Source: an uncultured Pseudomonadota bacterium | GTDB lineage: Bacteria > Pseudomonadota > Alphaproteobacteria > RF32 > CAG-239 | Assembly: GCA_949289935.1 (NCBI GenBank) | Contig: CASEQD010000002.1 | Location: 1,847 to 65,846, forward strand | Direction: 5' to 3' | Length of the DNA stretch: 64,000 nucleotides | Shown: positions 6,730 through 45,043 of the stretch, piece by piece | How the letters are laid out: each line of letters opens with the position of its first letter | Numbering within the stretch: position 1 is the stretch's first letter | Position numbers and translations under genes: made by a program | The notes under the pieces: generated by a model | What the model was told of the DNA's origin: nothing | The model's input: the letters and a program-made list of their open reading frames with translations, nothing else | Databases searched by the model: none

Positions 6730-7302
6730 ATGAAACAGGAAACCGAAGACCGAAGATGTATTTTGACGGGAGAAGTGAAGCGCAAAGAAGATTTGTTGCG
6801 TTTTACGGTTGTTGCGGGCGGGCAGGTTGTTCCGGATTTTAAAAAGAAACTTCCCGGCCGGGGAATTTATGTTTCCAATTCCAAAAAGTTGTTGGAAAAA
6901 GCTGTTCAGAAAGGGGCGTTTTCCAAAGCAACCAGAGGGAAAGCCCGGGCAGACGCCTCTTTAACGGAAATGGTTGAAGGTTTGTTGCGGAAAAGAGGGC
7001 TTGAAGCCGTTAACCTGGCCAGAAAAGCCGGTGTGTTTGTTACCGGTTTTGATAAGGTTAAGGATGTTTTGACAAAAGGAAAAGCCGCTTTTGTGTTGGA
7101 AGCCAGAGATGCTGCTTCCGACGGACACAGAAAAGTGCTCAGAGCGGCCGGAGATGCCGAAATTTTCGAATTGTATACTATTGAGGAGCTGGATCAGGCA
7201 TTGGGCAAAGTTAATACCGTACATGCCGCTTTTTTGAAAAGCGAAATGTCAAAAGCAGTGTATGCAGCGTTAAAGCGTTATGAACAATTTTTGAATTCAT
7301 AG
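6730..7302 (+). CDS. YlxR (DUF448)/L7Ae-like RNA-binding protein
   Basis: RRCILTGEVKRKEDLLRF ... LPGRGIYV is the YlxR motif, followed by an L7Ae-like half. It occupies the conserved position between nusA and infB. Confidence 0.7.
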   Translation: MKQETEDRRCILTGEVKRKEDLLRFTVVAGGQVVPDFKKKLPGRGIYVSNSKKLLEKAVQKGAFSKATRGKARADASLTEMVEGLLRKRGLEAVNLARKAGVFVTGFDKVKDVLTKGKAAFVLEARDAASDGHRKVLRAAGDAEIFELYTIEELDQALGKVNTVHAAFLKSEMSKAVYAALKRYEQFLNS

Positions 7303-7340
7303 ACGATAAGCAGAAAAAGAGAAATTGGAGATAATAGTTT

Positions 7341-9827
7341 ATGACCGAGGGTAATGTAAAAGGAAAATTAACGTTGTCGGGAAAGTCTACCCTGACATTG
7401 AAAAACGTGAGCGAGGCATCCCGGCCGCACCATAATGACGGCAAAAAGGTTGTGCAGGTTGAAGTTCGCAAAAAAAGAATTATCGGAAACCGGGGAGAGC
7501 AGGAAGAACCGAAGGTTAAAATAGACGAAGCTACAGCCGCTAAATTGAAGCTTCTTGCCGAAGCTAAAGAACATGATGCTAGACGTCGTCAGGAAGAAGA
7601 AGAAAAGGAACGTTTGCGTTTGCAAAGAAAAGAGGCGGAAGAGCAGGAAAAAGCCCGTAAGGAAGCTGAAGCCCGTCAGGCTGAGGAGGAAAAGGCCGCC
7701 GCTTCCGCGCAACAGACGGCAAAGGAAGAGGCCGCTTCCCAAACGGATAGCACTGTTGTTTCGCAGTTTAAAGCAAAACCCAAGAAATCGTATGATTTTG
7801 ATGAAGATGACAGCGAAGAAGGTTTTCACGGGCATAAATTTAATAAAAAAATTCAGGATAAGTCTTTAAGCAAAGATGAAGTTTTTGAGCAGGAACGCCG
7901 GAAAATTACAAAACGCAGTTTTGAGACACCCCGCCGCGGCGGCAAAGTTAATTTGCAAAATTACGGCAATGATGATTATGATGATGATGACTTTGGTTTC
8001 GGGGTGCCGCACCGCCGGTTTAAGAAAAAACAGCCGAAAACCCAGTCTTTGCAGCCGCCGGTAGAAAAAATCGTTAAAGAAGTCATTATTCCGGAAATTA
8101 TTACGGTTCAGGAATTGGCCAACCGCATGGCGGAAAAAAGCGCCGAAGTTATAAAGAAGCTGATGGCGCTTGGTGTTATGGCTACAATTAATCAGCCGAT
8201 TGATGCCGATACGGCTCAGATTATTGTTGAGGAATTCGGGCATAAATTCAAACGGGTTGCCGACAGTGATGTCGAGCAAGGCCTGACCGGTCCGGAAGAT
8301 AAACCTGAGGATCTGCTGCCCCGGGCGCCGGTGGTTACGGTTATGGGGCATGTCGATCACGGTAAAACTTCGCTGCTTGATGCCTTGCGCGAGACAAACG
8401 TGGCGGCTCGCGAAGCCGGCGGTATTACCCAGCATATCGGCGCTTATCAGATTGAAGTTGCCGGCGGAAAGAAAATTACGTTTATTGATACGCCGGGACA
8501 TGAGGCTTTTTCGGAAATGCGAGCCCGCGGCGCCAAAGTGACGGATATTGTTGTTTTGGTGGTTGCCGCCAATGATGGAATTATGCCGCAGACGGTGGAA
8601 GCTATACGCCATGCTCAGGCTGCAGAAGTTCCGATTGTGGTCGCTATTAATAAGATTGATCTTCCTGGTGCCGATCCGATGAAAGTTAAGACGGCTTTAT
8701 TGCAGCATGGTATTGCCGTGGAGGACATGGGCGGCGAGTATTTGTGCGCCGAAGTTTCCGCTAAGAAAAGGATAAATATTGATAAACTGGTAGAAGCTAT
8801 TTTGCTTCAGGCGGAAATTTTGGATTTGAAAGCAAATCCCAACCGGATGGCTGCAGGAACGGTTATTGAAGCCAAGATGGAAAAAGGCCGGGGGTCGGTA
8901 GCGACGGTTTTGGTTCAGAACGGGACGCTGCATGTCGGTGATGTTTGTATTGCCGGCAAGGAATGGGGGCATGTCCGCGCCATGTTTAACGAAAACGGCA
9001 AGAAAGTTCCGGAAGCCGGTCCGGCAACGCCGGTGGAAATTCTTGGTTTACAAGGAACGCCTGCGGCCGGTGATGATTTTGTTATTGTTAAAAATGAAGA
9101 TCAGGCCAAGGAAGTTACCGGTTACCGAATCCGCAAAGAAAGAGAAGCCAAGCTGGTTAAAAGCGCTAAGTCGGCGATGGAACAGATGCTGGACAAGATT
9201 AAATCAGGCGAGGTTAAACATTTGCCGGTTATTATCAAAGCCGATGTTCAGGGCTCTATTGAGGCGATTGAAGGCACAATCAAAAAGCTTTCCAATGATG
9301 AAGTCAGTGTTCAGATTTTACATTCCGCAGTCGGGCCGATTTCAGATTCTGATGTTACATTGGCAAAGGCTTCCAATGCTTTTATTGTCGGTTTTAATGT
9401 CAGGGCTATTCCTCATGCGCGCGATTTGGCTCGTCAGGATGGTGTTGATATTCGTTATTATTCCATTATTTATGATGTGGCCGATGATATTAAAAAAGCT
9501 CTGGAAGGAATGCTTTCTCCCGAATTGCGTGAAAAAATCATCGGTTATGCGGAAATTCGTAATGTATTTAATATTACCGGGGTTGGCAAAGTCGGCGGCT
9601 GCATGGTTACCGAAGGTTTTGTCCGGCGCGGCGCCAAAGTCAGGCTGTTGCGTGACAATGTGGTTATTCATGACGGGGCATTGGCGCAGCTGAAACGCTT
9701 TAAAGAAGATGTTAAAGAGGTTAAAGCCGGGTATGAGTGCGGTATGAGTTTTGAAAACTATAATGATATTCAGGTCGGAGATTTTATTGAATGTTATGAA
9801 GTGGAGGAAATTGCAGCGACATTATAG
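7341..9827 (+). CDS. infB: translation initiation factor IF-2
   Basis: 828 aa with a Lys/Glu-rich N-terminus and a GTPase core ([24 protein letters not shown]). Confidence 0.95.
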
Positions 9828-9852
9828 ATGTTTGTTATGTTAAAGCAAAAAA

Positions 9853-9879
9853 GCGGGGAGTTTTCTTCGCTTTTTTTTT
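9853..9879 (+). terminator. putative intrinsic terminator after infB
   Basis: A short GC stem with two G-U pairs (GCGGGG/CTTCGC) followed by T9. Confidence 0.4.
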
Positions 9880-9880
9880 G

Positions 9881-9908
9881 TTGACTTTTGTCTAATAAGG
9901 CGTAGTAT
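9881..9908 (+). promoter_or_regulatory. sigma70-like promoter of the ORFan at 9949
   Basis: TTGACT, a 16-nt spacer, then TAGTAT. The TTGACTTTTGTCTAA part is identical to 17907-17921. Confidence 0.4.
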
Positions 9909-9948
9909 ACCTTACGATATTTTATTATTTATTTAAATTATTAAACAT

Positions 9949-10491
9949 ATGAAAAAATTTTTTGAAATTCTGAACGCAATCGGTTTGTACAAAGCAAAAC
10001 AGGAAGGGTGTTTTTCACAAAAGCAGCAGCAAAAGCCTGTTGTTGAGGAAATTGAAATTTTTGACGGAAAAGAATATCCTTTTGAGTTGGTGTATGAGGA
10101 TGACAGTGTTTCGAACGTGTTTACTTCCGGAAAGAAAATTAAGGGTGTGATTTTGTCTCAGAACGGCAGGCATTTGTTTGTCGGGCGTTTTTTTTCCCGC
10201 CGGAAGCTTACTCAGGGCAAGGCCGCGGAATATTGTAAAAAAATTTCGTTTCGGGGAAAAATGTGCCGTCAGATGAATGAAGATGAGCTGAGGTATTTGT
10301 GCAATGAAAATGCGGCGTTGTTGAATGACGCTCCGGGGATTTTACTGATTCCGGATGATTTTGTCTGGACTGAAGTTCCGGTTCCTGCTTATCGGGGTTT
10401 TTATCTGGTTGTAAATTTACAGACAGGAATGGCTGCCTGGAAAAACGGCGCCTATTATTGTTATGCCGTGCCGGTTTGCAGTTTGGATTAA
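9949..10491 (+). CDS. hypothetical protein with DUF1566/Lcl-C-like motifs and no signal peptide
   Basis: KAAEYCKKISFRGKMCRQMNEDELRYL resembles the eA..yC....WRLPt..EL signature. VWTEV...VVNLQTGMAAWKNG...YAVPVC resembles the C-terminal half of that domain. Confidence 0.4.
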   Translation: MKKFFEILNAIGLYKAKQEGCFSQKQQQKPVVEEIEIFDGKEYPFELVYEDDSVSNVFTSGKKIKGVILSQNGRHLFVGRFFSRRKLTQGKAAEYCKKISFRGKMCRQMNEDELRYLCNENAALLNDAPGILLIPDDFVWTEVPVPAYRGFYLVVNLQTGMAAWKNGAYYCYAVPVCSLD

Positions 10492-10502
10492 GTAAAAAAT
10501 TG

Positions 10503-10535
10503 AAAAAAAGCTTCGGAAGTTTCCGAAGCTTTTTT
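10503..10535. terminator. bidirectional intrinsic terminator
   Basis: A7-GCTTCGG-loop-CCGAAGC-T6, sitting between convergent genes. Confidence 0.6.
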
Positions 10536-10551
10536 GTTGTTGTTAAGTTTT

Positions 10552-10857
10552 TTAGAATTCTATAACTTGATATGTTCCGCTTGTTTTACCTGAACCGTTT
10601 TTGAAAGTTGTGTATAGTTCATGTAAATAATTGCCTCCGCAAGATAAAAACCAAATAGAATTCTGGTCAAATTCTGTTGAAGAGTATACATTAGTCAGAT
10701 ACCCATTACCGGCATAATCGTAATTATGGCAGATTTTCGCTCCCAGTTTTTCGAATACGCTGTGGTTTCCAAATATCATGCATTTACAATTTTCTTCTTC
10801 ATCTGCCGGTATAATACCTCTGCTGCCGGACAGATTCAGCAAGGATATTTTTTTCAC
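10552..10857 (-). CDS. short DUF1566-like protein (C-terminal-half homolog of the secreted family); GTG start
   Basis: 101 aa ending ...YSSTEFDQNSIWFLS...GTYQVIEF. Compare WSSTEY...AWAW...VWPVIEF in the neighbouring paralog. It has no signal peptide and is divergent from paralog A. Confidence 0.35.
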   Translation of the reverse strand: MKKISLLNLSGSRGIIPADEEENCKCMIFGNHSVFEKLGAKICHNYDYAGNGYLTNVYSSTEFDQNSIWFLSCGGNYLHELYTTFKNGSGKTSGTYQVIEF

Positions 10858-10860
10858 CTC

Positions 10861-11145
10861 TGTATGAAATTAATGATTGAACACTTGTGAAATTCATGCT
10901 ACACTAAAACCAGTGATGATAAAGTGTGGAGGATGAAATGCGTGTGATTCTTTCCGCCGGCAAAAGGATATATTTTACCCTGCTGGCTTTTTACCCTGCT
11001 GGCTTCTTCTTTTATGTTCCCGGTTTCCGCTTTTGCCCAGTGCGTGAAAAATGAAAATTGTGCGGCGTTAGGCTATGATTCGACAACAGCATGCGATAAC
11101 GGCATCAAATGCCCGTTTGGGGAATATTGGGCGTGTCCCGAACCT
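10861..11145 (+). repeat. conserved 5' module of the secreted-protein family, copy A (promoter, 5'UTR, signal peptide, first Cys motif)
   Basis: Near-identical to the reverse complement of 19177-19451 and 44735-45002. It includes TTGAAC-17-TACACT (10877-10905), a GGAGG RBS and ATG 10938. Confidence 0.8.
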
Positions 11146-11778
11146 GTCAAACCGGAAGGCGCCGTCCTCGGTCAGTGTAACGGGTATGCCAAAAACTGCA
11201 AAATCGGCGATATTCTTTATACGGACGGTATCTGTTCCGCCGATGTCGTTTCCGGTAAAACCCCGATTGCCGTCGTCGTTTATATCGGCGGGGATGGTTG
11301 TGGCCAGGCTTTGGCGTTGGAAAATTTGGGTAAAATGGTTTGGTCTACGGAAAATGTTAATATTCCGGAACTGGAAAATTTTTGGAATAAAGCTGAAAGT
11401 AATTACAGCAGTTGTAAAAATACACACGCTGTTTTAGAATACAGTAATGAAAAATATAAAAATGCGGCTTCACAATATTATCCTGCTTTTAAGGCTGTTA
11501 ACGATTATACACCATCGATTATCCCTGAAACCAAGGGTAAATGGTGTCTGCCGGCCGGCGGTGTATTGGACAGTATTTCCAAAAATACAAAAATCATAGG
11601 TACTGCTTTGGTGAAAACAGGTAAAGATAATTTTAATGTTTCCGGATGGTTGACCCTATGGTCATCAACGGAGTATACTGATAATACGGCATGGGCATGG
11701 ACATTAACAGGGGAGTTATCTCATGGTTCCACTTTTAAAAATTCTGACATATATGTCTGGCCGGTAATTGAGTTTTAA
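10938..11778 (+). pseudogene. secreted Cys-rich DUF1566-like protein, paralog A, frameshifted in the signal peptide
   Basis: From ATG 10938 the frame ends at TGA 11052-11054. Deleting one 16-bp unit joins it in frame to ORF 11014-11778 (MFPVSAFAQCVKNENCAALGY...WCLPAGGVL...LWSSTEY...VWPVIEF). Confidence 0.65.
10973..11004. repeat. perfect 16-bp tandem duplication (TTTTACCCTGCTGGCT x2)
   Basis: Read directly from the sequence. The other two paralogs carry a single unit at the homologous site. Confidence 0.95.
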
Positions 11779-11794
11779 AATTTGATATATACCA

Positions 11795-11829
11795 ACAGAA
11801 AACGCTTCCGGAGAGGAAGCGTTTTCTGT
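11795..11829. terminator. bidirectional intrinsic terminator
   Basis: A perfect 15-bp stem, ACAGAAAACGCTTCC / GGAAGCGTTTTCTGT, with loop GGAGA and a T-run on the + side. It lies between convergent genes. Confidence 0.7.
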
Positions 11830-11833
11830 TGTT

Positions 11834-14668
11834 TTATTTCCGTTCGGTTTTATCCATCGGCAGGGGGTCTTTTGAACCGCTGTTGTAGAGGATGGCATTG
11901 CTGATTTCGGAATTCTTAACCGGAATGTCTTTAATCTGTTTTCCGCAGATTTCCAGTCCGACACTCTTTATTGCGGTGGCAATCGGCAGGAACAGGTCGG
12001 CATTTTGTCCGGCTTTCTGTCCGGTATGAGCCAAACCGGCGATGGTGCCGTGCTGGTCGATCAGAGCTCCGCCGAGCGTGATATCCTGAACGAAAGTATC
12101 AACAATAATTTCGGTGCCGCGGTCTTCGGAATAACGGTAGCCGCTGACTTTTCCGGAATTTTCGAGATAGCCTTCACCGGTATCAAAGTCCAGAATGCCG
12201 AGGGTCAGATAAGTTTCCTGACTAATCGGCGGCAGATCGAGGTTCAGAGACAGCGGTGTGTAGGCGGTTTTCTTTTCCATGAACAACAGGGCAACGTTTT
12301 TCTTCGGGTTAATCCGGACAGCATGTCCTTTAAATTTGACACCGTTGATGGTTTGCAGTTCATAAGTATTGTTATCTTTGGTGATTAAATCCGCCGAGGT
12401 CAGGACAAACTGGTCTGAGATAATCAGACCGGCGCCTTTCCGTCCTTTGTTGTTGGCAATGGAAATGATTGAAGCGCGGATTTTGTAAACATCTTCAGGC
12501 GTTAACGGCGCGTCATAAGCCGGGCGTTCGATTATGCAAAGGCTGTTTTGCGCATCAAGGGCGCTCTTATCTTCGACCGGCAGAGATACCCATGTTTCTT
12601 TGGTGACGGAACCGGTTGCCTCGACACCGCCTTTTTCTTCAATATCAAGATCAATGTTATTGGCAATTTTGCAACCTTCAGGATCATGGGCGCAATCGCC
12701 GAACATGGTTTGTTTGTCGCAGCCGCCATAGAATTTGTTGTCTTCACAACCGCGATAGAGCTTATTGTCTTCGCAGCCGCGGTAGAGTTTATTATTGCAG
12801 TCGCAATCAGGGCCGAACAATGTCATATTATTGCACGGCGTTTCCGGTTTGGGCAGCGGCGGAACGGGCAGGGGAATCGTACCGCCCGGGTTTTCCATGG
12901 TTACAGTGTTTAAGTCCACTTCAATTTCGGCGGCATTTTCAATAACTTCTTTTTGTCCGTAGCGTTTTTCCGGCGCTTCAGGCAACAGGCTGATATCCAG
13001 AGGTTCGGACGGACGTTCTTTTTCGAGCAAATCAACAGCATTGACGGGTGCCGGTTCTTCTATTGTCGTTACCACGGCAGAGATGGTTTTTGTTGTCGTT
13101 TCTGCTACAGGCAGAGGCACGGGAGGCGTCGGAACGGCCGGTGTCGGCAGGGAAACTTCGACCGGTTCTTTTTCAATAACGGTTGTTTCAATTTTTTCTT
13201 TAACGATTATGGGTTCGCTCTTTTCCAGCGGCAGAGGCGCCGGCGGCGTTTTGACAATGCTTCCGTCCGATTGTTTTTGAACAACGGAACCATCGGAAAG
13301 TTTTGCCACGCTGGTCGGAACCGGGAGTTGTTCTTTAAGATAATCCGGTTTGATCAGAGGAGAAGGCGCTGCCGGTTCCGGTACTTTTACTTTTTCCGCA
13401 GGTTTGTCGGGGGTGTAAATATATTTGCTGGTTTGTCCGGCTTCAATGTCGTGTTTTGTGTATTGACACTTCAGCGGATTGACTTCACGTTCGTGTTCAA
13501 TGTAGGCAATTCTCTGGTTTTCTTTTTCCGCAGGACTTAGACGGTGTGTCAGTTGTTTTTGGAAACCCGGGTGGTTGCCGAGGTTGTTGGCCGCATCGGC
13601 AAAGGCTCTTTCCACCAGAAGGATTTCACCGTTTTGTTCGCCGCGCTTCAGTTCGCCGTAACCGTTGGTTTCTCCGCTCCAATAGGCTTTTGTTTTGTTT
13701 ATGTCGGTGATTGTCCATTTAACTGTGATTTCGGAGGAGCCGGTGCGCCGGTCTTCACGGATGCTGTTGTCCCAGTCATATTCATCACAGACGTTCATGA
13801 AGTAATTGGTGATTTCCGCCGTAACGAGATATTCAGGGAGCGGGCTGGGCGTATCTTCCGTACAGACATCATCCGGAATTTTTATGAAATTGTAGCATTC
13901 TTTAAGTTCATTTTCGAAAACAGAGATGAGACGCATGTTTTGCCGCAGCAGCCGTCCCTGATCCAGAATAGCTTCTTTGCTGAAACGGCGGCAGCCGAAA
14001 ATGCGGAAGCGGTAATTGCCGAGTTTTTGTGGAAAGGCGTCATTTAAATCATCGCCGTTTAAACGAAAATCAACCCATTCCAACTGGATGGGGGCGAATT
14101 TTTTGCATTGATTATGAATGCTGCGGTAGACATCTCTCCGGCCGACGGTGATGTAGTTGTTTACGAAATTTTCCCGCCGGGGGGCGATTTCTTCTGCTGT
14201 AATCCGACGCTTTTTTACCGGTTTGCAGACGGCTTTTTTAGGGGCTGGTTTTACTTTGACGCAGCCGCGCATTTCATCCGAAGAACAACCGTGGCCGGGA
14301 AAAATGCTGTTGTCCTGTTTTTTTGTTGATTCGCAACAGGTGCCGCCGAATATACTGCCGTCACGGTAGGTTTTTCCCGTGCTTTTAACATTGACTACCG
14401 GTTGCGGACGACGTTGTTCCAACCGTGTGTTTATGCGGCTGTCGGCTTCTCCGGAGAAGGAAATTTCTTTGGGGCGGGCTTCGTCGAAAAAGCCCATGGA
14501 GCGGCTTAATCCCGTATATTCTGTACGGACGGTGCGACTGCCGGCCGGTGTTTCTTCGCGGAAAGAGTTGCCGTATTGGGAAGCCATGCTTTCGGAGAAT
14601 GCCGCACTGCATAAGGACAAAGCCATGGCAGAACAGGCCAAGAGTTTGAAACACCGTGTGATTTTCAT
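11834..14668 (-). CDS. large secreted or lipoprotein-like protein with a Pro-rich linker, Cys-rich repeats and a C-terminal trypsin-like (S1C-type) domain lacking the catalytic triad
   Basis: 944 aa. Signal/lipobox-like N-terminus (KLLACSAMALSLCSAAFS), a PxP-rich middle and NKLYRGCED repeats. The C-terminus reads GAGLIISDQFVLTSADL / NVALLF / TLGGALIDQHGTIAGL, which mimics the GSGFxI..TNxHV / DxALL / GNSGGPL blocks. Confidence 0.6.
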   Translation of the reverse strand: MKITRCFKLLACSAMALSLCSAAFSESMASQYGNSFREETPAGSRTVRTEYTGLSRSMGFFDEARPKEISFSGEADSRINTRLEQRRPQPVVNVKSTGKTYRDGSIFGGTCCESTKKQDNSIFPGHGCSSDEMRGCVKVKPAPKKAVCKPVKKRRITAEEIAPRRENFVNNYITVGRRDVYRSIHNQCKKFAPIQLEWVDFRLNGDDLNDAFPQKLGNYRFRIFGCRRFSKEAILDQGRLLRQNMRLISVFENELKECYNFIKIPDDVCTEDTPSPLPEYLVTAEITNYFMNVCDEYDWDNSIREDRRTGSSEITVKWTITDINKTKAYWSGETNGYGELKRGEQNGEILLVERAFADAANNLGNHPGFQKQLTHRLSPAEKENQRIAYIEHEREVNPLKCQYTKHDIEAGQTSKYIYTPDKPAEKVKVPEPAAPSPLIKPDYLKEQLPVPTSVAKLSDGSVVQKQSDGSIVKTPPAPLPLEKSEPIIVKEKIETTVIEKEPVEVSLPTPAVPTPPVPLPVAETTTKTISAVVTTIEEPAPVNAVDLLEKERPSEPLDISLLPEAPEKRYGQKEVIENAAEIEVDLNTVTMENPGGTIPLPVPPLPKPETPCNNMTLFGPDCDCNNKLYRGCEDNKLYRGCEDNKFYGGCDKQTMFGDCAHDPEGCKIANNIDLDIEEKGGVEATGSVTKETWVSLPVEDKSALDAQNSLCIIERPAYDAPLTPEDVYKIRASIISIANNKGRKGAGLIISDQFVLTSADLITKDNNTYELQTINGVKFKGHAVRINPKKNVALLFMEKKTAYTPLSLNLDLPPISQETYLTLGILDFDTGEGYLENSGKVSGYRYSEDRGTEIIVDTFVQDITLGGALIDQHGTIAGLAHTGQKAGQNADLFLPIATAIKSVGLEICGKQIKDIPVKNSEISNAILYNSGSKDPLPMDKTERK
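12714..12791 (-). repeat. in-frame 27-nt tandem repeats encoding NK(L/F)Y(R/G)GC(E/D) units
   Basis: 12738-12764 and 12765-12791 are near-identical. 12714-12737 is a shorter, diverged third unit. Confidence 0.8.
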
Positions 14669-14681
14669 TTAATTTTCTCCA

Positions 14682-16205
14682 TTATTTTCTCCGGTCGGGT
14701 AAAGCTCTGCGGTAAGACAAAGCTTCAGCTATATGCAGTTTAAGCACATTTTCATTATTTTGCAAGTCTGCAATTGTTCTTGCTAACCGTAAAATGCGAT
14801 GGTAAGCGCGGGCGGAAAGATTGTTTTTGTCGGCAAAAGCAATCAAAAGCGCTTCGGCGTCGTTGTCCAGCCGTACGGCTTGTTCCAGCAAGCTGCCTTT
14901 CAGTTCGGCATTTGTGTGCAGTTCAGGATGTCCGAAACGGCGGAATCTTTCGGTTTGGATGTTGCGGGCGGCAACAACCCTTTTTAAGATTTCAGCCGAA
15001 GTTTCACCGGTTTTGATATCGGCAATTTCCCAGGGACTAACGGCAGGAACTTCAATTTGTATGTCTATGCGATCCAGCAGAGGACCGGATATCCGCGCCT
15101 GATATTCTTCGGCACATTTCGGAGCACGGGAGCATTCAAAGCGGGGATTGCCCAAATTGCCGCACCGGCAAGGGTTCATTGCCGCGATAAGCTGAAATTT
15201 TGCCGGATAGGTTGTGTGAGCGTTGACGCGGGATATAGTGATGCTGCCATTTTCCAGAGGCTGACGCAGGGCTTCCAATGTCGCCCGGTTGAATTCGGGA
15301 AGCTCGTCCAAGAACAAAACGCCGTTGTGGGCGAGAGAAATTTCGCCCGGTTCAGCCCGCCGTCCGCCGCCGACCAGTGCAGGCGTCGATGCATTATGAT
15401 GCGGCGCCCGGAAAGGACGTTCAAAACAAAGCTGTCCTTCTTTCAGAATGCCGGCAACGGAGTGAATCATGCTGGTTTCAAGCGCTTCTTCGGCCGTGAG
15501 CGGCGGCAGAATTCCCGGTAATCTGGCGGCAAGCATGCTTTTCCCGGCACCGGGCGGGCCGATCATGAGCATGTTGTGTCCGCCTGCAGCCGCAATTTCC
15601 AATGCTTTTTTTGCACTTTCCTGACCTTTGACATCTTTCATGTCGGGATGTCTGAGAGACGGCATTTTATGCGGCCGGCCGGGCGGCGGGATGAGTTGAG
15701 CGCCCTTGAAGTGGTTGATGAGCGCCAGAAGCGACGGCGCCGCTATGATGTTTTTTAAGCCGGACCACGCTGCTTCGGCTCCCTGTGCTTCGGGGCAGAT
15801 GAGCCCCAGGTTTTGTTCATTGGCTTTGATTGCGACGGGGAGAGCTCCGTTAACGGGAAGAATGTTTCCGTCCAGGCTTAATTCGCCCAGAACAAGATAT
15901 CCGGAAAGTTCTTCCGAAGGGATGATGCCCATTCCGCACAGCAGTCCCAGAGCGACAGGCAAGTCAAAATGCGCTCCTTCTTTTAACAAATCGGCCGGCG
16001 CGAGGTTGACAATAATGCGTTTGGCCGGGACGGACAGTCCCAGCGAACTGAGCGCGGCGCGTACGCGTTCGCGGCTTTCCGCCACGGATTTATCCGGCAG
16101 GCCGACAATGGAAAATGCCGGCATTCCCGAAGAAAGTTGTACCTGGAGGTCAACATTTATAACATCCAGCCCGTTGAAAGTTATCGTATTGATTCTGGAC
16201 AGCAT
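14682..16205 (-). CDS. yifB: YifB/ComM family Mg-chelatase-like AAA+ ATPase
   Basis: 507 aa with a Lon-protease-like N-domain, Walker A GPPGAGKS, GVLFLDELPEF and a typical C-terminal helical domain. Confidence 0.9.
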   Translation of the reverse strand: MLSRINTITFNGLDVINVDLQVQLSSGMPAFSIVGLPDKSVAESRERVRAALSSLGLSVPAKRIIVNLAPADLLKEGAHFDLPVALGLLCGMGIIPSEELSGYLVLGELSLDGNILPVNGALPVAIKANEQNLGLICPEAQGAEAAWSGLKNIIAAPSLLALINHFKGAQLIPPPGRPHKMPSLRHPDMKDVKGQESAKKALEIAAAGGHNMLMIGPPGAGKSMLAARLPGILPPLTAEEALETSMIHSVAGILKEGQLCFERPFRAPHHNASTPALVGGGRRAEPGEISLAHNGVLFLDELPEFNRATLEALRQPLENGSITISRVNAHTTYPAKFQLIAAMNPCRCGNLGNPRFECSRAPKCAEEYQARISGPLLDRIDIQIEVPAVSPWEIADIKTGETSAEILKRVVAARNIQTERFRRFGHPELHTNAELKGSLLEQAVRLDNDAEALLIAFADKNNLSARAYHRILRLARTIADLQNNENVLKLHIAEALSYRRALPDRRK

Positions 16206-16211
16206 GTTTGG

Positions 16212-16553
16212 TTACCACCTGGGCGTTCTTTCATATTCCCTCCAACGGCGGGTGGGGTTGGTTTCTCTGGTGAGAAAATCATAATTTGCCGTTTTATAAG
16301 GGATATCGCGGAAACGGACGTAGTTTTTCTTTTCAAAACTTCTGGCGCAGCTTTCGGCTGAGGAAAAAGCCGTGCGGTAGCAATGAACGATGTTTCTGGA
16401 AACGGGTTCCAGCAGGCTGATTGATTCAGGAACATTGACATAGTCTGCCGGAGCTGGGATGTACCGGATTGTTTTTCCGCCAGGCGTAAACCAGGCACAG
16501 GAACTTCCTGCCAGCAGGGTGCATACCGCAACCATAATTTTGAACTTTGACAT
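16212..16553 (-). CDS. putative small lipoprotein
   Basis: Signal peptide with lipobox-like LLAGSSC. It lies 6 nt upstream of yifB on the same strand. Confidence 0.45.
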   Translation of the reverse strand: MSKFKIMVAVCTLLAGSSCAWFTPGGKTIRYIPAPADYVNVPESISLLEPVSRNIVHCYRTAFSSAESCARSFEKKNYVRFRDIPYKTANYDFLTRETNPTRRWREYERTPRW

Positions 16554-16664
16554 TTGTTGTTTATTTCCCGTTAGTTTTTTAGTTGAATTTAGCAGAAAAT
16601 AATTAATATATCATAAACGCATCGGGGATGAAGGGTGCGAAAAAATGTTTTTTATAAAAAAAGC

Positions 16665-16692
16665 TTGCAAAATAAAGTTTTTGGTGTATATT
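16665..16692 (+). promoter_or_regulatory. sigma70-like promoter of rpsF-rpsR-rplI
   Basis: TTGCAA, a 16-nt spacer, then TATATT, about 90 nt upstream of rpsF. Confidence 0.4.
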
Positions 16693-16782
16693 ACGCCCGT
16701 TCCTTGCTCGCAAAAAGCGGGCTATACAATAGAACCAGCCCGGTTTCCGGGCATTTGTTGAGAATCCATAAGGAGATTTTGT

Positions 16783-17112
16783 ATGACTAATTATGAAAGC
16801 GTGCTGATTGCACGTCAGGATTTGGGCGCCTCCCAAGTCAGCAGCATTGTCGATGAACTGACAAATGTTGTTAAAAAAGAAGGCGGCGAAGTTGTCAGAG
16901 TTGATAACTGGGGTTTGAAAAATCTGGCTTACCGCATTAAGAAAAACCGCAAAGGCCATTATGTTTTGATGAACATTACCGCTCCGGCCGGGGCTATTGC
17001 CGAACTGGAACGGGTTATGCGCTTTAACGAAGATATTATCCGTTATATGACGGTTAAAGTCGACGAATTCAGCGAAGTTTCGTCGTCCGAAAAAGAAGCT
17101 GCGGAAGAATAG
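16783..17112 (+). CDS. rpsF: 30S ribosomal protein S6
   Basis: YESVLIARQD... plus an acidic C-terminus, and the rpsF-rpsR-rplI gene order. Confidence 0.9.
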   Translation: MTNYESVLIARQDLGASQVSSIVDELTNVVKKEGGEVVRVDNWGLKNLAYRIKKNRKGHYVLMNITAPAGAIAELERVMRFNEDIIRYMTVKVDEFSEVSSSEKEAAEE

Positions 17113-17124
17113 GAGGTTAAGACA

Positions 17125-17352
17125 ATGGCTAAACAGGTATTTTTCAGAAGAAAGAAAACTTGTCCGTTTTCCGGTGAAGATGCTTTGAAGATTGATTATA
17201 AAGACGTTAAGCTTCTTTCAAGATATATTTCGGAAAAAGGAAAAATCATTCCCAGCCGCATTACTGCGGTTTCCGTTAAAAAGCAGAGAGAACTGGCCCG
17301 CGCCATCAAACGCGCCCGCTATATCGGTCTGCTTCCGTTTGTGGCTGATTAG
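17125..17352 (+). CDS. rpsR: 30S ribosomal protein S18
   Basis: [35 protein letters not shown] motif. Confidence 0.9.
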
Positions 17353-17366
17353 GAAGGAGAGAAAAT

Positions 17367-17852
17367 ATGGAAATTATTCTTCTGGAACATGTAGACAAAC
17401 TGGGTAAAATGGGCGACAAGGTTACCGTTAAAAACGGTTATGCCCGTAACTATCTTCTGCCGAGCAAAAAGGCACTGCGCGCCACAGAGGCCAATGTTGC
17501 TTTTTATGAAAAGAAAAAGGCAGAGCTTGAAGCCCACAATAAGGCTTTGTTTGACGAGGCTTCCAAAAAAGCCGAGGCTCTCAAAGGCTACAGCGCGGTT
17601 CTTATCCGTCAGGCTGCCGAAACCGGTCAGCTGTATGGTTCCGTTACCATTCGCGATATTGCCGCTGCTATTAAAGAATCCGGTTTTGAAGTTGAACGCC
17701 GCTGCGTTTTTCTTGATAAGCCGATTAAGGATCTGGGAATTTACGAAGTTAAGCTGAATCTTCATCCGGAAGTTACTCAGACAATTTTGGTGAATGTTGC
17801 CAGAACTGATGATGATGCCAAAAAACAGGCTAAGGCTTACGAAAATAACTAG
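17367..17852 (+). CDS. rplI: 50S ribosomal protein L9
   Basis: MEIILLEHVDKLGKMGDKVTVKNGYARNYLLP N-terminal domain. Confidence 0.9.
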   Translation: MEIILLEHVDKLGKMGDKVTVKNGYARNYLLPSKKALRATEANVAFYEKKKAELEAHNKALFDEASKKAEALKGYSAVLIRQAAETGQLYGSVTIRDIAAAIKESGFEVERRCVFLDKPIKDLGIYEVKLNLHPEVTQTILVNVARTDDDAKKQAKAYENN

Positions 17853-17874
17853 TTTGTTTTTTGTCGGTTTTGAA

Positions 17875-17905
17875 GCAGGGTGCTCAGGTACTCTGCTTTT
17901 TTTTT
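17875..17905 (+). terminator. intrinsic terminator after rplI
   Basis: GCAGGGT / ACTCTGC stem (one G-U pair), 8-nt loop, then T9. Confidence 0.6.
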
Positions 17906-17906
17906 G

Positions 17907-17935
17907 TTGACTTTTGTCTAAATTTTAGATATAAA
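17907..17935 (+). promoter_or_regulatory. sigma70-like promoter of the ORFan at 17976
   Basis: TTGACT, a 17-nt spacer, then TATAAA. The first 15 nt are identical to 9881-9895. Confidence 0.5.
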
Positions 17936-17975
17936 GGGAATGATATTGTATTTTTTTAATTATAATTATAGAATT

Positions 17976-18428
17976 ATGAAAAAGAAAAAATTTCAAGGAA
18001 GTGTCAAATTTGACATTTTGTATGCCGGTGGTGAAATTTCGGAAAATTTGATTCCGGGGAAGAAAATTGAAGCAGTTGCTTATAACGGGTATGCAGTTTG
18101 GGCAGAAGATGTTCCGGAGTGGTTTACCAGCGAGGAAGCGGCTGAAAAGGTGAAGAATTTTTCTATCGGCGGGCAGGTTTGCAATTTGGGGCCTGATGGA
18201 TTTTGGACATCAATTAAGTTTGTCTCGGATGAGTTGAAACAGTTTATGTTAGGAATTCGTGTTGCACCCATCAGAGGCGCCGTGTGGACAGAAAAGCTTC
18301 GGGACGGGGACGTGAATAAAAGGGTTTTTGTTTATCCTGATACCGGGGAATTTGGCGCACAGAACAGAGAGACGAACTTTATCCGTCCGGTGGTTCGGGT
18401 GGCCGACTGTTCATTAAAGCGGATTTGA
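17976..18428 (+). CDS. hypothetical protein with DUF1566/Lcl-C-like motifs and no signal peptide
   Basis: WFTSEEAAEKVKNFSIGGQVC..., GAVWTEK...VFVYPDTGEFG...FIRPVVRV. It shares GKKI(K/E)(G/A)V with the 9949 protein. The start is the ATG at 17976; the ORF track begins at 17940. Confidence 0.4.
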   Translation: MKKKKFQGSVKFDILYAGGEISENLIPGKKIEAVAYNGYAVWAEDVPEWFTSEEAAEKVKNFSIGGQVCNLGPDGFWTSIKFVSDELKQFMLGIRVAPIRGAVWTEKLRDGDVNKRVFVYPDTGEFGAQNRETNFIRPVVRVADCSLKRI

Positions 18429-18449
18429 GATGAAATTTTTTGTGTAAAG

Positions 18450-18484
18450 AAAGGGTTCCGGGATTTGTCCGGAGCCCTTTTTTT
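18450..18484. terminator. bidirectional intrinsic terminator
   Basis: GGGTTCCGG / CCGGAGCCC stem (one G-U pair) followed by T7, with an A-rich 5' flank, between convergent genes. Confidence 0.6.
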
Positions 18485-18498
18485 GTTAGGAAGTGCTT

Positions 18499-19368
18499 CT
18501 AAAATTCAAAGTAGTTCCATACATATACACCTGTATCAAAAAGGTCTATGGGAATTTCTTGTAATTCCGATGTTTCAAATTTTAACTGAGATTCTGGAGC
18601 ATAATAATCCATTCTTATGCTGTATCCCCATAATACATTTGCGGCGCCTGATACGGCAGCGTTGGTGCTGAATGTCCGGAAATTTTGCCATTCGAAACCA
18701 TCAAAGGAGGTCAGTCCGGCTCTGGTAAGTTTGTGTGCTATTTCCGTTAAATTGTTTATTAGAGACTTTGCTACGCCGCCGGGTATGCCGATTTCCCGAA
18801 AATTTGAATTGAAATTGTTTTCAGCTTCGGTTTTTGTGAGTTTTGGCAGATTATTGTAATAATTGTTGGTTAAAACATAGGAATTAACGGATGATCTACC
18901 GATATAACCGGTTACGGCATATCCGCCGCCGCCGGGTTTTGTGTAGGCAACCACGCCTTTGGGGGTTTTTGAACTGTCAAAGTTGTAGGAGCAGGTATCG
19001 TCGGTGTAATAAATGTATCCGATTTGACATTTGGGAAGAGTTTTACTGCAGGTTCCGTTGTTCCATTCATATCCGGCAGCGCAGTTGCAGAAAGTGTATT
19101 TTCCATTGCAGGCTCCGGTTAACGGCTTTTTTTGATTGGTTCCGGTGCAAGTGTATTTGTATGACGTACCGCATTTTTCTTCCGGGCACGCCCAATACTC
19201 GCCGAACGGGCATTTCAGGCAATTTTCTTTGTTGGTTGTTTCTGTATAACCCAAAGCAGAACAGTCTTTATTTTCCACGCACTGGGCAAAAGCGGAAATT
19301 GGGAACATAAAAGAAGAAGCCAGCAGGGTAAAATATACCTTTTTGCCGGCGGAAAGAATCACACGCAT
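18499..19368 (-). CDS. secreted Cys-rich protein, paralog B (family N-terminal module with a divergent C-terminal region)
   Basis: MRVILSAGKKVYFTLLASSFMFPISAFA-QCVENKDCSALGY...KCPFGEYWACPEE. An AFA-Q signal-peptidase site is present, and the C-terminus ends ...VWNYFEF. Confidence 0.6.
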   Translation of the reverse strand: MRVILSAGKKVYFTLLASSFMFPISAFAQCVENKDCSALGYTETTNKENCLKCPFGEYWACPEEKCGTSYKYTCTGTNQKKPLTGACNGKYTFCNCAAGYEWNNGTCSKTLPKCQIGYIYYTDDTCSYNFDSSKTPKGVVAYTKPGGGGYAVTGYIGRSSVNSYVLTNNYYNNLPKLTKTEAENNFNSNFREIGIPGGVAKSLINNLTEIAHKLTRAGLTSFDGFEWQNFRTFSTNAAVSGAANVLWGYSIRMDYYAPESQLKFETSELQEIPIDLFDTGVYVWNYFEF

Positions 19369-19451
19369 TTCATCCTCCTCCTCCACACTTTATCATCACT
19401 GATTTTAGTGTAACATGAATTTTCTAATTGTTCAATCATTATTTTCATGCA
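19177..19451 (-). repeat. conserved 5' module of the secreted-protein family, copy B
   Basis: The reverse complement aligns with 10861-11145 and with the reverse complement of 44735-45002. It includes TTGAAC-17-TACACT and the signal-peptide codons. Confidence 0.8.
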
Positions 19452-19498
19452 GAAATGAAAAAAATGAAGAGGATTTTTTTTGATTCATACCCCACCCG

Positions 19499-19518
19499 CC
19501 TCCCCTACTCAGGGGAGG
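19499..19518. repeat. perfect hairpin CCTCCCCT-ACTC-AGGGGAGG
   Basis: 8-bp stem with a 4-nt loop. The identical hairpin occurs at 45155-45174. Half-sites TACTCAGGGGAGG recur at 19533-19545 and 19663-19675. Confidence 0.85.
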
Positions 19519-19579
19519 AAAAATGGAGAGGATACTCAGGGGAGGGATATAAGGAGTAAAGCAAAGCTGCTTCGGTCAA

Positions 19580-19636
19580 CTGAATTGTAACGATTGTTTC
19601 CTTAGGCTGCCGCCTGTTCACAATCTAACAATTCAG
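19580..19636. other. long imperfect hairpin in an intergenic region
   Basis: cTGAATTGT (19580-19588) pairs with ACAATTCAg (19628-19636). GATTGT (19592-19597) pairs with ACAATC (19620-19625). The loop is 22 nt. Confidence 0.6.
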
Positions 19637-19701
19637 ACTCTGTCGTTGAAAAACAATTGATGTACTCAGGGGAGGAAACGATTGTTGCTTTTTGATTTTT
19701 C

Positions 19702-19730
19702 TTGATTATCAAAGGTTTTCACGTTATAAA
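19702..19730 (+). promoter_or_regulatory. sigma70-like promoter of rbfA-truB
   Basis: TTGATT, a 17-nt spacer, then TATAAA, 31 nt upstream of the rbfA ATG. Confidence 0.5.
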
Positions 19731-19760
19731 GTAAGCAGTTTTGATTTGAGGAGAAAATTT

Positions 19761-24917: not shown

Positions 24918-25490
24918 ATGTTTTTGATTGTCGGTTTGGGCAATCCCGGTGCAGAATATGCGGCTACCCGGCACAATGTGGGGTTTATGATTGCGGATGT
25001 TTTGCATGAAAAATATGAATTTGGTGTTTTTCGGGCAAAATTTGACGGGATGATTGCCGAAGGAAAAATCGGTAATGAGAAAGTTTATCTGCTTAAGCCT
25101 CAGACGTTTATGAATCTTTCGGGAAATTCCGTAGTGAAGGCAGTGCAGTTTTATAAAATTCCGCCGCAGAACGTGATTGTTATTCATGATGATATGGATT
25201 TGCCGGTTGGAAAATTAAAAGCCAAGACCGGCGGCGGTGCCGGCGGACATAATGGTTTGAAATCAATAGACGCAGCAATTACACCGAATTATAACCGGAT
25301 CAGAATCGGCGTCGGACATCCGCAGGGGCATGGCGATGATGTTGTGAATTATGTTTTGGGAGGATTTTCCAAGGCGGATAAGGAAAAAATTGACGAAATG
25401 GCGGATTTGATTGCAGAAACGCTACCGGTGTTGTTGGAAAAAGGGATGGCGCAATATTCCAACCTTATCGGGATAAAAAATAAAAAGTAA
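24918..25490 (+). CDS. pth: peptidyl-tRNA hydrolase
   Basis: LIVGLGNPGAEYAATRHNVGF, GGHNGLKSI motifs. Confidence 0.9.
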   Translation: MFLIVGLGNPGAEYAATRHNVGFMIADVLHEKYEFGVFRAKFDGMIAEGKIGNEKVYLLKPQTFMNLSGNSVVKAVQFYKIPPQNVIVIHDDMDLPVGKLKAKTGGGAGGHNGLKSIDAAITPNYNRIRIGVGHPQGHGDDVVNYVLGGFSKADKEKIDEMADLIAETLPVLLEKGMAQYSNLIGIKNKK

Positions 25491-25529
25491 AGTTTGAAAT
25501 TATTATTGTGTTATTTAATTGTTATAATT

Positions 25530-26099
25530 ATGGAAAAAAATCGTGTCGAAGAAATTTTTCAGTCCCGAATAGTCAGATTGGGAGCTAAATGGCGTATTCT
25601 ATTGTTGTTGCGTCAAAATCTGCAATGTGATTCTATGGGCGAATACCAATGTTTTTTGAGCGAAGATGAGGTGCTCAGCCTGATAAAACGCGTGGATTGT
25701 TCTGATCCGCAAAGAAAGACAAGGGATTTTTGGGATCAGTGTTATGAGCGGTTGCTGCCGTTTATTGCGGAAAAACCAACGGATGGGCTGCTGAAATATA
25801 TTATGCTTCACGGGTATTTGCTCAATACTTTTTTCCGGGTTCTCGGTGAAGATGAATTGCGTCATAACAGACCTTTACAGCGTAAGTTATGTGAAATTGA
25901 AAAAGGCGAATGCGGAATGTTTACACCTAAATTCAGCTTTTTGTTTTTTCATTATGCGGTGCGTTATGATTTGGATGATGACTTGCTGGATGAATTGTTG
26001 CGTGATGAACAAAAATATGGCTGTTTGTTGTCAGTTTATAAAGATTCCAGACATGTGAAGAATACAACCGGAATTTTGGGAGGCCGGGGGCTTTGGTGA
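25530..26099 (+). CDS. hypothetical protein, tandem paralog 1
   Basis: Aligns by eye along its length with the 26239 protein (NRVE..., LSE(D/E)EV(L/M)SL(I/L)(K/E)RVD(C/R)SDP, ERL(L/I)PF, YGYL, PKF, RYDL). No family was recognised. Confidence 0.45.
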   Translation: MEKNRVEEIFQSRIVRLGAKWRILLLLRQNLQCDSMGEYQCFLSEDEVLSLIKRVDCSDPQRKTRDFWDQCYERLLPFIAEKPTDGLLKYIMLHGYLLNTFFRVLGEDELRHNRPLQRKLCEIEKGECGMFTPKFSFLFFHYAVRYDLDDDLLDELLRDEQKYGCLLSVYKDSRHVKNTTGILGGRGLW

Positions 26100-44107: not shown

Positions 44108-44926
44108 CTAAAACTTGATTATAGGGCGAATGCTACTGTAAGTGTGTTTGCCGTCGGCATAGAAGTTGGAATTGCTCAAAGACAAGCGCCAAGCCCATCC
44201 AGTTGTGGAGCCATATTCGGATGATGACCACCAGGAATTGTTGCCGATGTTTTCTTTGTTGATTCTGGTTAAACTTTGATCAATGGCTGTTTTATTTTGG
44301 TTAATACTGTTTAACACACCGCCGGCCGGCAAACACCATTTACCCTTTGTTTCCGGCATGGTTGATGGGGCATAGTTGTATACCTCCCAGAATGCCGGAT
44401 AATAATTTGAAGCATAGTCTCCGTATTGTTTGTAACTGTAATCAATAACTGTTTTCGTATTCTCACAGCTGTCAAAATCGTTTGTTGGCTCACTGCTGTA
44501 ATTTGGTAAATCAGGAATTTTGACAGATTCTGTTGACCAGTAGAAATTTCCCAGTCCTTCTAGCGCCAGAGCCTGGCCGCAGCCGTTTTCGCCGATATAA
44601 ACAACAATGCCGACCGGCTCAACTCCGCTGACACGGTAGTCCGAACAGCTGCCATCAATATTTAAGATTTGCCCGATTTTGCAGTTTTTGGCATAACCGG
44701 TACATTGGCCGAGAATGGCTCCTTCAGGTTTTGCAGGTTCGGGACATGCCCAATATTCACCGAACGGACATTTAATACCGTTATCACATGCTGTTGTCGA
44801 ATCGTAGCCTAATGCCGCACAGTTTTCATTTTCCACACACTGGGCAAAAGCGGAAATGGGGAACATAAAAGAAGAAGCCAGCAAGGTAAAATATATCCTT
44901 TTGCCGGCGGAAAGAATCACACGCAT
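44108..44926 (-). CDS. secreted Cys-rich DUF1566/Lcl-C-like protein, paralog C (intact)
   Basis: MRVILSAGKRIYFTLLASSFMFPISAFA-QCVENENCAALGYDSTTACDNGIKCPFGEYWACPEP..., GIVVYIGENGCGQALALEGLG..YWS, KGKWCLPAGGVLNSI, WWSSSEYGSTTGWAW...IRPIIKF. It is colinear with paralog A. Confidence 0.6.
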   Translation of the reverse strand: MRVILSAGKRIYFTLLASSFMFPISAFAQCVENENCAALGYDSTTACDNGIKCPFGEYWACPEPAKPEGAILGQCTGYAKNCKIGQILNIDGSCSDYRVSGVEPVGIVVYIGENGCGQALALEGLGNFYWSTESVKIPDLPNYSSEPTNDFDSCENTKTVIDYSYKQYGDYASNYYPAFWEVYNYAPSTMPETKGKWCLPAGGVLNSINQNKTAIDQSLTRINKENIGNNSWWSSSEYGSTTGWAWRLSLSNSNFYADGKHTYSSIRPIIKF

Positions 44927-45002
44927 TTCATCCTCCACACTTTATTACACTGATTTTAGTGTAGCATGGATTTTGTTATATGTAAATCATTAATTTCATA
45001 CA
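44735..45002 (-). repeat. conserved 5' module of the secreted-protein family, copy C
   Basis: The reverse complement aligns with 10861-11145. The promoter is TTTACA-17-TACACT, followed by a GGAGG RBS and signal-peptide codons almost identical to copies A and B. Confidence 0.8.
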
Positions 45003-45043
45003 AAGGTGAAAAAAATGAAGAGGATTTTTTTGAATCATACCCC

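Follow-up and report, generated by a model that had tools for sequence, protein, structure and literature searches.

A young 16-bp tandem duplication in the signal-peptide codons of a predicted lectin-like gene: a probable loss-of-function polymorphism in a lesion-rich segment of a bacterial multigene family

The window, i.e. the whole stretch of 64,000 nucleotides that was analysed, carries a gene for a predicted secreted protein (hereafter gene A) whose signal-peptide codons are disrupted by a perfect 16-bp tandem duplication, and an intact allele with a single unit is present in an independent metagenome assembly that is otherwise identical over the locus. We judge it probable that gene A is a young loss-of-function polymorphism, located in a family segment that is indel-prone or selected, and that it is revertible only incidentally, with no evolved switch behind it. 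The host, an alphaproteobacterium from the gut that is uncultured, has 'Azospirillum sp. UMGS63' and Candidatus Scatocola-type MAGs as relatives: the identity of its IF-2 is 86-87% to MAGs under the labels 'uncultured Azospirillum sp. UMGS63' and 'Pseudomonadota bacterium S36M_St_32', and 79-80% to Candidatus Scatocola.

The structure of the locus was analysed from the window sequence, TRF and paralog alignments. The unit TTTTACCCTGCTGGCT, which corresponds to the signal-peptide codons for YFTLLA, is found at 10973-10988 (forward strand, as for all features of gene A) and again directly behind, at 10989-11004; this second unit is the inserted copy, missing from the paralogs and from the intact ENA allele described below. 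TRF reports the repeat at 10973-11005 (period 16, 2.1 copies, 100% matches, score 66), and it is the best perfect two-copy repeat of the window; about 1.5e-5 perfect 16-nt tandem repeats are expected by chance in 64 kb (64000 x 4^-16). The insertion point is at canonical nt 36/52 after the ATG, with a junction ambiguity of 1 nt. Upstream, the Shine-Dalgarno sequence GGAGG (10928-10932) and the start codon ATG (10938-10940) are invariant across the copies of the 5' cassette that gene A shares with its family, and the intact allele was called from the equivalent start by the gene caller. An element at 10877-10905 (TTGAAC, a 17-nt spacer, TACACT), invariant or nearly so in the alignment of three paralogs and in the roughly 50-copy cassette, is a putative promoter; it matches 8 of 12 consensus positions and was hence left unlisted by a scan whose threshold was 9/12. 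From the ATG at 10938 the frame runs into a TGA at 11052-11054, and the frameshift leaves a truncated frame of 38 codons (MRVILSAGKRIYFTLLAFYPAGFFFYVPGFRFCPVREK, 10938-11054). The body of gene A is a 254-codon frame at 11014-11778 in the ORF listing, open throughout and beginning MFPVSAFAQC at an internal ATG without Shine-Dalgarno sequence; this first Met is that of ...SSFMFP..., and the n-region of the signal peptide is lacking, as is most of its h-region. The terminator scan places a strong intrinsic terminator (17-bp stem followed by a T-run) at 11793-11841. The sequence-only reading from which this work started had described the back-to-back units, the premature stop, the residual ORF and a knock-out in which start codon and signal peptide are uncoupled from the gene body, and in all these points it was right. 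By inspection, no X XXY YYZ heptamer occurs at the duplication junction, and programmed frameshifting was dropped as a rescue of the frame for that reason.

Two paralogs in the window, B (18499-19368, minus strand, 289 aa) and C (44108-44926, minus strand, 272 aa), have an intact cassette, and the alignment confirms that each carries a single unit at the homologous place, as had been noted beforehand. The three genes are near base-for-base alike in about 100 nt upstream, in the RBS and in the signal-peptide codons. The body of B is divergent, and C is among the closest paralogs of gene A in the genome (60-64% identity). Gene A lies within the approximately 9.9 kb that separate infB from rbfA (window 9828-19760), an interval with a family member at either end, A at 10938 and B at 19368.

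The intact allele was identified through the second sequence in the 90% cluster of the 254-aa ORF. This protein, P0121, has 274 aa, starts with MRVILSAGKRIYFTLLASSFMFPVSAFAQC..., possesses the full signal peptide and is 100% identical to the window ORF over its last 254 residues. It is encoded on contig k87_22150868 of the ENA metagenome assembly ERZ17292903, where it is followed by the genes for a 944-aa protein and a Mg-chelatase-like protein, as in the window. Over the 6.7 kb that correspond to window 10920-17668, this contig shows 0 mismatches and one gap, which is the 16-nt unit; farther upstream, window 6949-10976 is matched at 100% identity by a second ENA contig. A stretch of 41 consecutive 87-mers of the ENA contig is absent from the window's genome; each of them spans the one-unit junction together with A-specific downstream bases, and therefore reads of a one-unit gene A exist in the ENA data. 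The ENA assembly breaks inside the cassette because six paralogs have exact stretches of at least 87 nt in common with the one-unit form, and the k87 contig, of 8431 nt, has cassettes A and B as its exact limits. Look-ups of the exact proteins for the 254-aa ORF, its 101-aa neighbour and the 38-aa truncated ORF returned no further contig, and no orthologs were found in other species, the closest non-self protein being 62% identical. Both alleles thus exist in near-identical populations. Since the one-unit allele sits in an otherwise identical assembly, the view that the duplication is a very young, presumptive loss-of-function allele is strongly supported. Comparing the locus in related strains or MAGs had been suggested at the outset, and ERZ17292903 provided a comparison: the anticipated 274-codon one-unit ORF exists as a natural allele, gene A has no lesion besides the 16-nt gap, and the event is very recent, which was one of the two possibilities first envisaged.

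Gene A belongs to a large family, with about 80-100 loci in the genome (79 protein-level matches, 100 tblastn loci), of which approximately 50 share a near-identical cassette of promoter-like element, RBS and signal-peptide codons (about 52 copies with a recognisable start, about 65 by BLAST); the sequence-only reading had known three of these genes. The intact N-terminus, MRVILSAGKR / IYFTLLASSFMFPVS / AFA-QC, shows by inspection a basic n-region, a hydrophobic h-region and an AxA motif, as would a standard Sec (SPase I) signal peptide. In the body, a Cys-rich module at the N-terminal end is followed by a C-terminal domain of the Lcl_C / C-type-lectin-like kind. At the sequence level the match is weak: Pfam Lcl_C (PF07603) gives 18.5-18.7 bits on the body, under the cut-off of 34.9, weak Lcl_C matches are present in 10 of 36 family members (best E 4.6e-5), and a PDB sequence profile gives E 0.28 for 8q4e. 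The AlphaFold model of the intact allele, computed from a 36-sequence family alignment, has pLDDT 87 and pTM 0.75, with residues 1-25 unstructured. Foldseek matches this model to 4eps, the Bacteroides ovatus fimbrial-type protein BACOVA_04982 (E 9.1e-7), to 8q4e_A, the C-terminal domain of Legionella pneumophila Lcl (E 2.1e-4, probability 1.00, TM 0.62 on the target), and then, weakly, to C-type lectins. The predicted fold is thus the C-type-lectin-like fold of the Lcl C-terminal domain, and matches both PF07603/DUF1566 Lcl and 4eps. The family differs from Lcl by a Cys-rich N-terminal module of its own (QC..C..LGY....KCPFG..W.CP) and by the lack of a collagen-like region, and its sequences score 18.5 bits where Pfam demands 34.9. 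From this model we take the family to be one of secreted, Cys-rich, lectin/adhesin-like proteins with an Lcl_C/C-type-lectin fold.

The family is found in 13 of the 14 congeners searched, with 7-59 matches each. The cassette DNA (window 44820-45030) is present in none of the 14 congeneric genomes, where other signal peptides (MNINFKFLL..., MKKILLASVG...) are placed on the same protein family. With a genus-wide family and a cassette absent from the 14 congeners, the 5' module appears to be homogenised within the species, which indicates concerted evolution of this module within each species.

To place the duplication of gene A in its family context, all cassette copies were aligned, and lesions were called against the best canonical relative or the ENA allele. 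Ten independent indels were found in the signal-peptide segment (the first ~140 nt). Six are frameshifting: the 16-nt duplication of gene A and deletions of 71, 26, 37, 47 and 1 nt. Four are in-frame deletions, of 12, 24, 54 and ~93/99 nt, the last removing the entire signal peptide. They are located on genome contigs C2 (rc18766), C3 (~25688, minus strand), C5 (72969), C6 (rc14191), C12 (4908), C14 (4635), C18 (rc21889), C22 (7290) and C63 (4105), and at window 10973-11004. Gene A is the only duplication; the nine others are deletions, and the sizes range from 1 to 99 nt. No lesion is common to two copies, and in-frame and out-of-frame lesions stand at 4:6, near the random 1:2. Behind the frameshifts, the body is a single long open frame of 249-287 codons in 6 of 6 copies, none of which has a second lesion. 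The 5' segment has six frameshifts in about 135 nt, compared with five frameshifts or stops in the approximately 770 nt of the body, i.e. a roughly seven-fold excess per nucleotide (binomial p ~0.003). In total about 15 of the ~100 family loci bear some lesion, C43 and C46 carrying several. All ten lesions of the signal-peptide segment are in cassettes of the MRVILSAGK/MCV type, with none in the ~21 copies that have other signal peptides, and their left breakpoints are clustered at nt 51-58 after the ATG (GGCT^TCTTC^T^TTTATG). No signal-peptide lesion was seen among 40 family loci of three other species, of which 35 were informative (two are cut by contig ends, three are outside the filter). 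These data leave two possibilities for the signal-peptide segment: either it is unusually indel-prone, or it is repeatedly selected for silencing at the source.

Two of the affected copies have features of their own. In the copy at C3 ~24922-25701 (minus strand), the signal peptide is gone by an in-frame deletion between two TGTGTG motifs (MCCVSLGYNKTSC...); this copy is intact and presumably a cytoplasmic version, with a weakened RBS, GGAGA. The copy at C22:7290-8155 (ENA L010, 2687-3493) is a family gene lying between rplO (L15) and secY, in the spc ribosomal-protein operon.

The lesions were also compared with the ENA assembly, in which the loci of further lesion sites were reached through neighbouring genes. 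Four lesions are comparable, and three of them are missing from ENA: the duplication of gene A, the 12-nt deletion on C63 and the 26-nt deletion at C5+72969 are all canonical there. The fourth, the loss of 1 nt in an A-run on C22, is identical in both assemblies. The deletions at C2-18766 (71 nt) and C18-21889 (47 nt) are uninformative, since only 12-13 nt of ENA sequence follow the junction. About 33.7 kb were compared, with four indels, all in 5' modules of the family, versus one SNP; this indel:SNP ratio of 4:1 is far above normal, with the reservation that the three polymorphic lesions were picked for comparison because they are lesions. The only SNP, C5:74688 (A here, C in ENA), affects a gene of 749/778 aa that has no relation to the family. 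The derived alleles are all in one assembly, and for ten canonical copies no polymorphism of the reverse kind (intact here, broken elsewhere) is on record.

Some observations concern the surroundings of these loci. At C18:352-395 there is a 22-nt perfect tandem duplication (AACAATTCAGACTCTGTCGTTG x2), single-copy in ENA (L008, 1-40) and outside the coding cassette; a general indel process in the lineage is thus possible. It is part of a repeat element of about 80 copies, usually 150-400 nt upstream of family genes and fixed in orientation, another copy of which (C35:1217-1248) carries a 16-nt duplication. The start of ENA contig L006 and the end of L008 correspond to C2 rc18823 and C18 rc21991, where the window's genome offers no paralog 87-mer; these contig ends may reflect another allele or strain in the ENA sample. 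Taking them for graph branches produced by allele mixtures was rejected as over-interpretation.

The following course of events may be proposed for gene A. The 16-bp tandem duplication, which shifts the frame by +1, would have arisen spontaneously within the signal-peptide codons, by slippage or template switching. Translation initiated at the strong RBS and ATG would then halt after 38 codons, and the body, left with an internal ATG, no RBS and no export signal, would give a protein neither made nor exported. If silencing is selected, early lesions would have the merit of sparing the cell the export of truncated Cys-rich fragments. Slippage with loss of one of the two perfect units would restore gene A, and so would gene conversion from any of the ~50 near-identical cassettes; in principle the lesion is reversible, and we predict this as an incidental property of the mutation. 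Several mechanisms for the family lesions were considered and set aside. Microhomology at the ENA-verified junctions amounts to 0-1 nt, so that simple slippage between pre-existing direct repeats is an unlikely origin for them. A hairpin or cruciform in the cassette was rejected, with z-scores of +0.6 to +0.7 and a single-stranded DNA fold no better than that of shuffles, as was Ku-dependent end joining, Ku not being found in the genome.

The alternative first put forward, an ON-OFF switch by duplication and deletion of the unit, found no support: each of the other ~50 cassettes has exactly one unit and none a second, the nine other lesions are deletions, and the 35 informative congener loci are clean. 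A broader version, at the level of the family, is unlikely in our estimation. Indels formed in the cassette at a high rate would silence or de-export the members singly, in a manner similar to phase variation, and loss of a unit or conversion would restore them, so that the set of lectin-like proteins exported in a population would keep changing. The ten independent indels in ~140 nt and the intact bodies behind the six frameshifts agree with such a process, as do the three of four testable lesions that differ between assemblies separated by 1 SNP in 33.7 kb, the grouped left breakpoints and the confinement of lesions to one cassette type; furthermore, the homogenised state of the cassette in this species and its absence from 14 congeners suggest that gene conversion is ongoing. 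However, neither a repeat tract nor the signature of a recombinase or invertase is present, and since nine of the ten lesions are deletions, slippage cannot revert them. The near-random ratio of in-frame to out-of-frame lesions gives no sign of frame toggling, and the absence of any lesion common to several copies gives none that conversion moves or repairs lesions. The derived alleles confined to one assembly, the lesion-free signal peptides at the informative loci of three congeners and the unremarkable single-stranded fold of the segment also argue against it.

A related proposal, which we regard as quite unlikely, likens the shared 5' cassette to a fuse that can be repaired. Blunt indels would strike a fragile stretch, some 50-90 nt behind the ATG, far above background and silence or de-export single members, and they would be mended by loss of a duplicated unit or from the pool of paralogs. 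If true, this would be phase variation with neither repeat tract nor invertase, in which ~50 sister cassettes serve as the repair template.

Plain neutral decay is an equally doubtful account. The family would be redundant and under weak selection, gene A would be a pseudogene at an early stage, and the 5' clustering would result from assembly bias and small numbers. A lesion of some kind in about 15 of ~100 loci, several of them in C43 and C46, the random frame ratio and the derived alleles all in one lineage are what decay would give. Against it stand the 5' enrichment of frameshifts, whose p value is given above, the six early-frameshift copies that all lack a second lesion, and at least 3 lesions per 1 SNP in 33.7 kb, far above the indel:SNP ratio usual under neutral decay.

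The last alternative is an assembly artefact, in which the two-unit form would exist in no read and would have been made while the contig was built through the repeated cassette. The contig ends of the window's genome overlap by 99 nt, which indicates an assembler run at k=99. At this length the one-unit form has exact 99-mers in common with two paralogs and the longest stretch shared by the two-unit form is 83 nt, so that an unbroken 131-kb contig is predicted from the latter and not from the former. Although the cassette at this locus exists in about 50 copies, the independent k87 assembly breaks there and the duplication is seen in a single assembly only, an artefact is highly improbable: a 16-nt duplication matches no k-mer join when overlaps are 99 nt, no 20-mer or longer stretch recurs in the one-unit sequence that could loop a de Bruijn graph, and the blunt 12-nt and 26-nt deletions relative to ENA are likewise beyond graph errors. 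A contig-joining artefact in particular was rejected on the same k-mer arguments (99-nt overlaps, 83-nt maximum sharing). On this basis, the reads behind the window probably do contain the two-unit form. The same arguments have another side: an indel that breaks the repeat makes a cassette unique, and a de Bruijn assembler may favour minority indel alleles to obtain long contigs. Rare alleles may consequently weigh too heavily in the lesion load of the window's assembly, and the hot zone may look stronger than it is; even if the assembler threaded minority alleles, the alleles would still coexist.

We thus return to gene A as a young polymorphism of loss of function. On its own, the duplication is an ordinary young frameshift; it is also a rare and clean example, from an uncultured bacterium of the gut, of one strain background with both the broken and the intact allele of a gene for a secreted adhesin-like protein. 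The family-wide cluster of young indels in signal-peptide codons is a more interesting lead than the duplication itself. If the alleles coexist and turn over, this would be an undescribed route by which gut Alphaproteobacteria vary the export of ~100 lectin-like proteins and, if so, it would bear on the interaction with host and phage. A practical warning also follows for MAGs, in which 'pseudogenes' in repeated cassettes may be minority alleles assembled preferentially.

Comparison with known systems helps to situate the family. In the opa genes of Neisseria, tracts of CTCTT/CTTCT pentamers in the signal-peptide codons set the ON or OFF frame of each paralog. The likeness is that frame changes in the signal peptide decide the state of members of a surface multigene family, paralog by paralog. 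The difference is that opa has a repeat tract, whereas the cassette studied here has one unit canonically and two in gene A, the other lesions being unique deletions of 1-99 nt; no opa-type tract of variable short units was detected, TRF giving its 2.1 copies at locus A only. In pilE/pilS, vlsE and msp2, antigenic variation proceeds by gene conversion with silent cassettes. They resemble the present family by their many paralogs, a homogenised common segment and intact bodies behind non-expressed starts, but systems of the pilE/pilS type rely on a single expression site and promoterless donors, while here each copy has its own promoter-like element, RBS and ATG; neither a single expression site nor a promoterless archive was found among the cassette copies.

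The closest parallel is the phase variation by tandem duplication of pneumococcal capsule genes, namely cap3A, and cap8E and tts (Waite et al. 2001, pmid 11886554; Waite et al. 2003, pmid 12624211; references 33 and 28 of PMC4022640). There, as in gene A, a spontaneous perfect tandem duplication within an ORF, with no prior tract, is reported to frameshift a surface-related gene. Gene A shows two features of the cap3A type, a perfect in-ORF tandem duplication with a predicted frameshift loss of function and a one-copy full-length allele (P0121) in the same strain background; precise loss of one copy is reported to restore the pneumococcal gene, and the one-unit allele of gene A sits in a near-identical genome. 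A third feature, recurrent and different duplications as the usual OFF lesion, is absent, duplications accounting for 1 of 10 lesions: in pneumococcus many different duplications are reported in one gene, compared here with ten paralogs, of which one has a duplication and nine have a deletion. Cultures of pneumococcus are reported to switch both ways at measurable frequency, and for gene A there are the alleles of two assemblies. Finally, the pneumococcal target is a biosynthetic enzyme, whereas here it is the signal peptide of a predicted secreted lectin-like protein.
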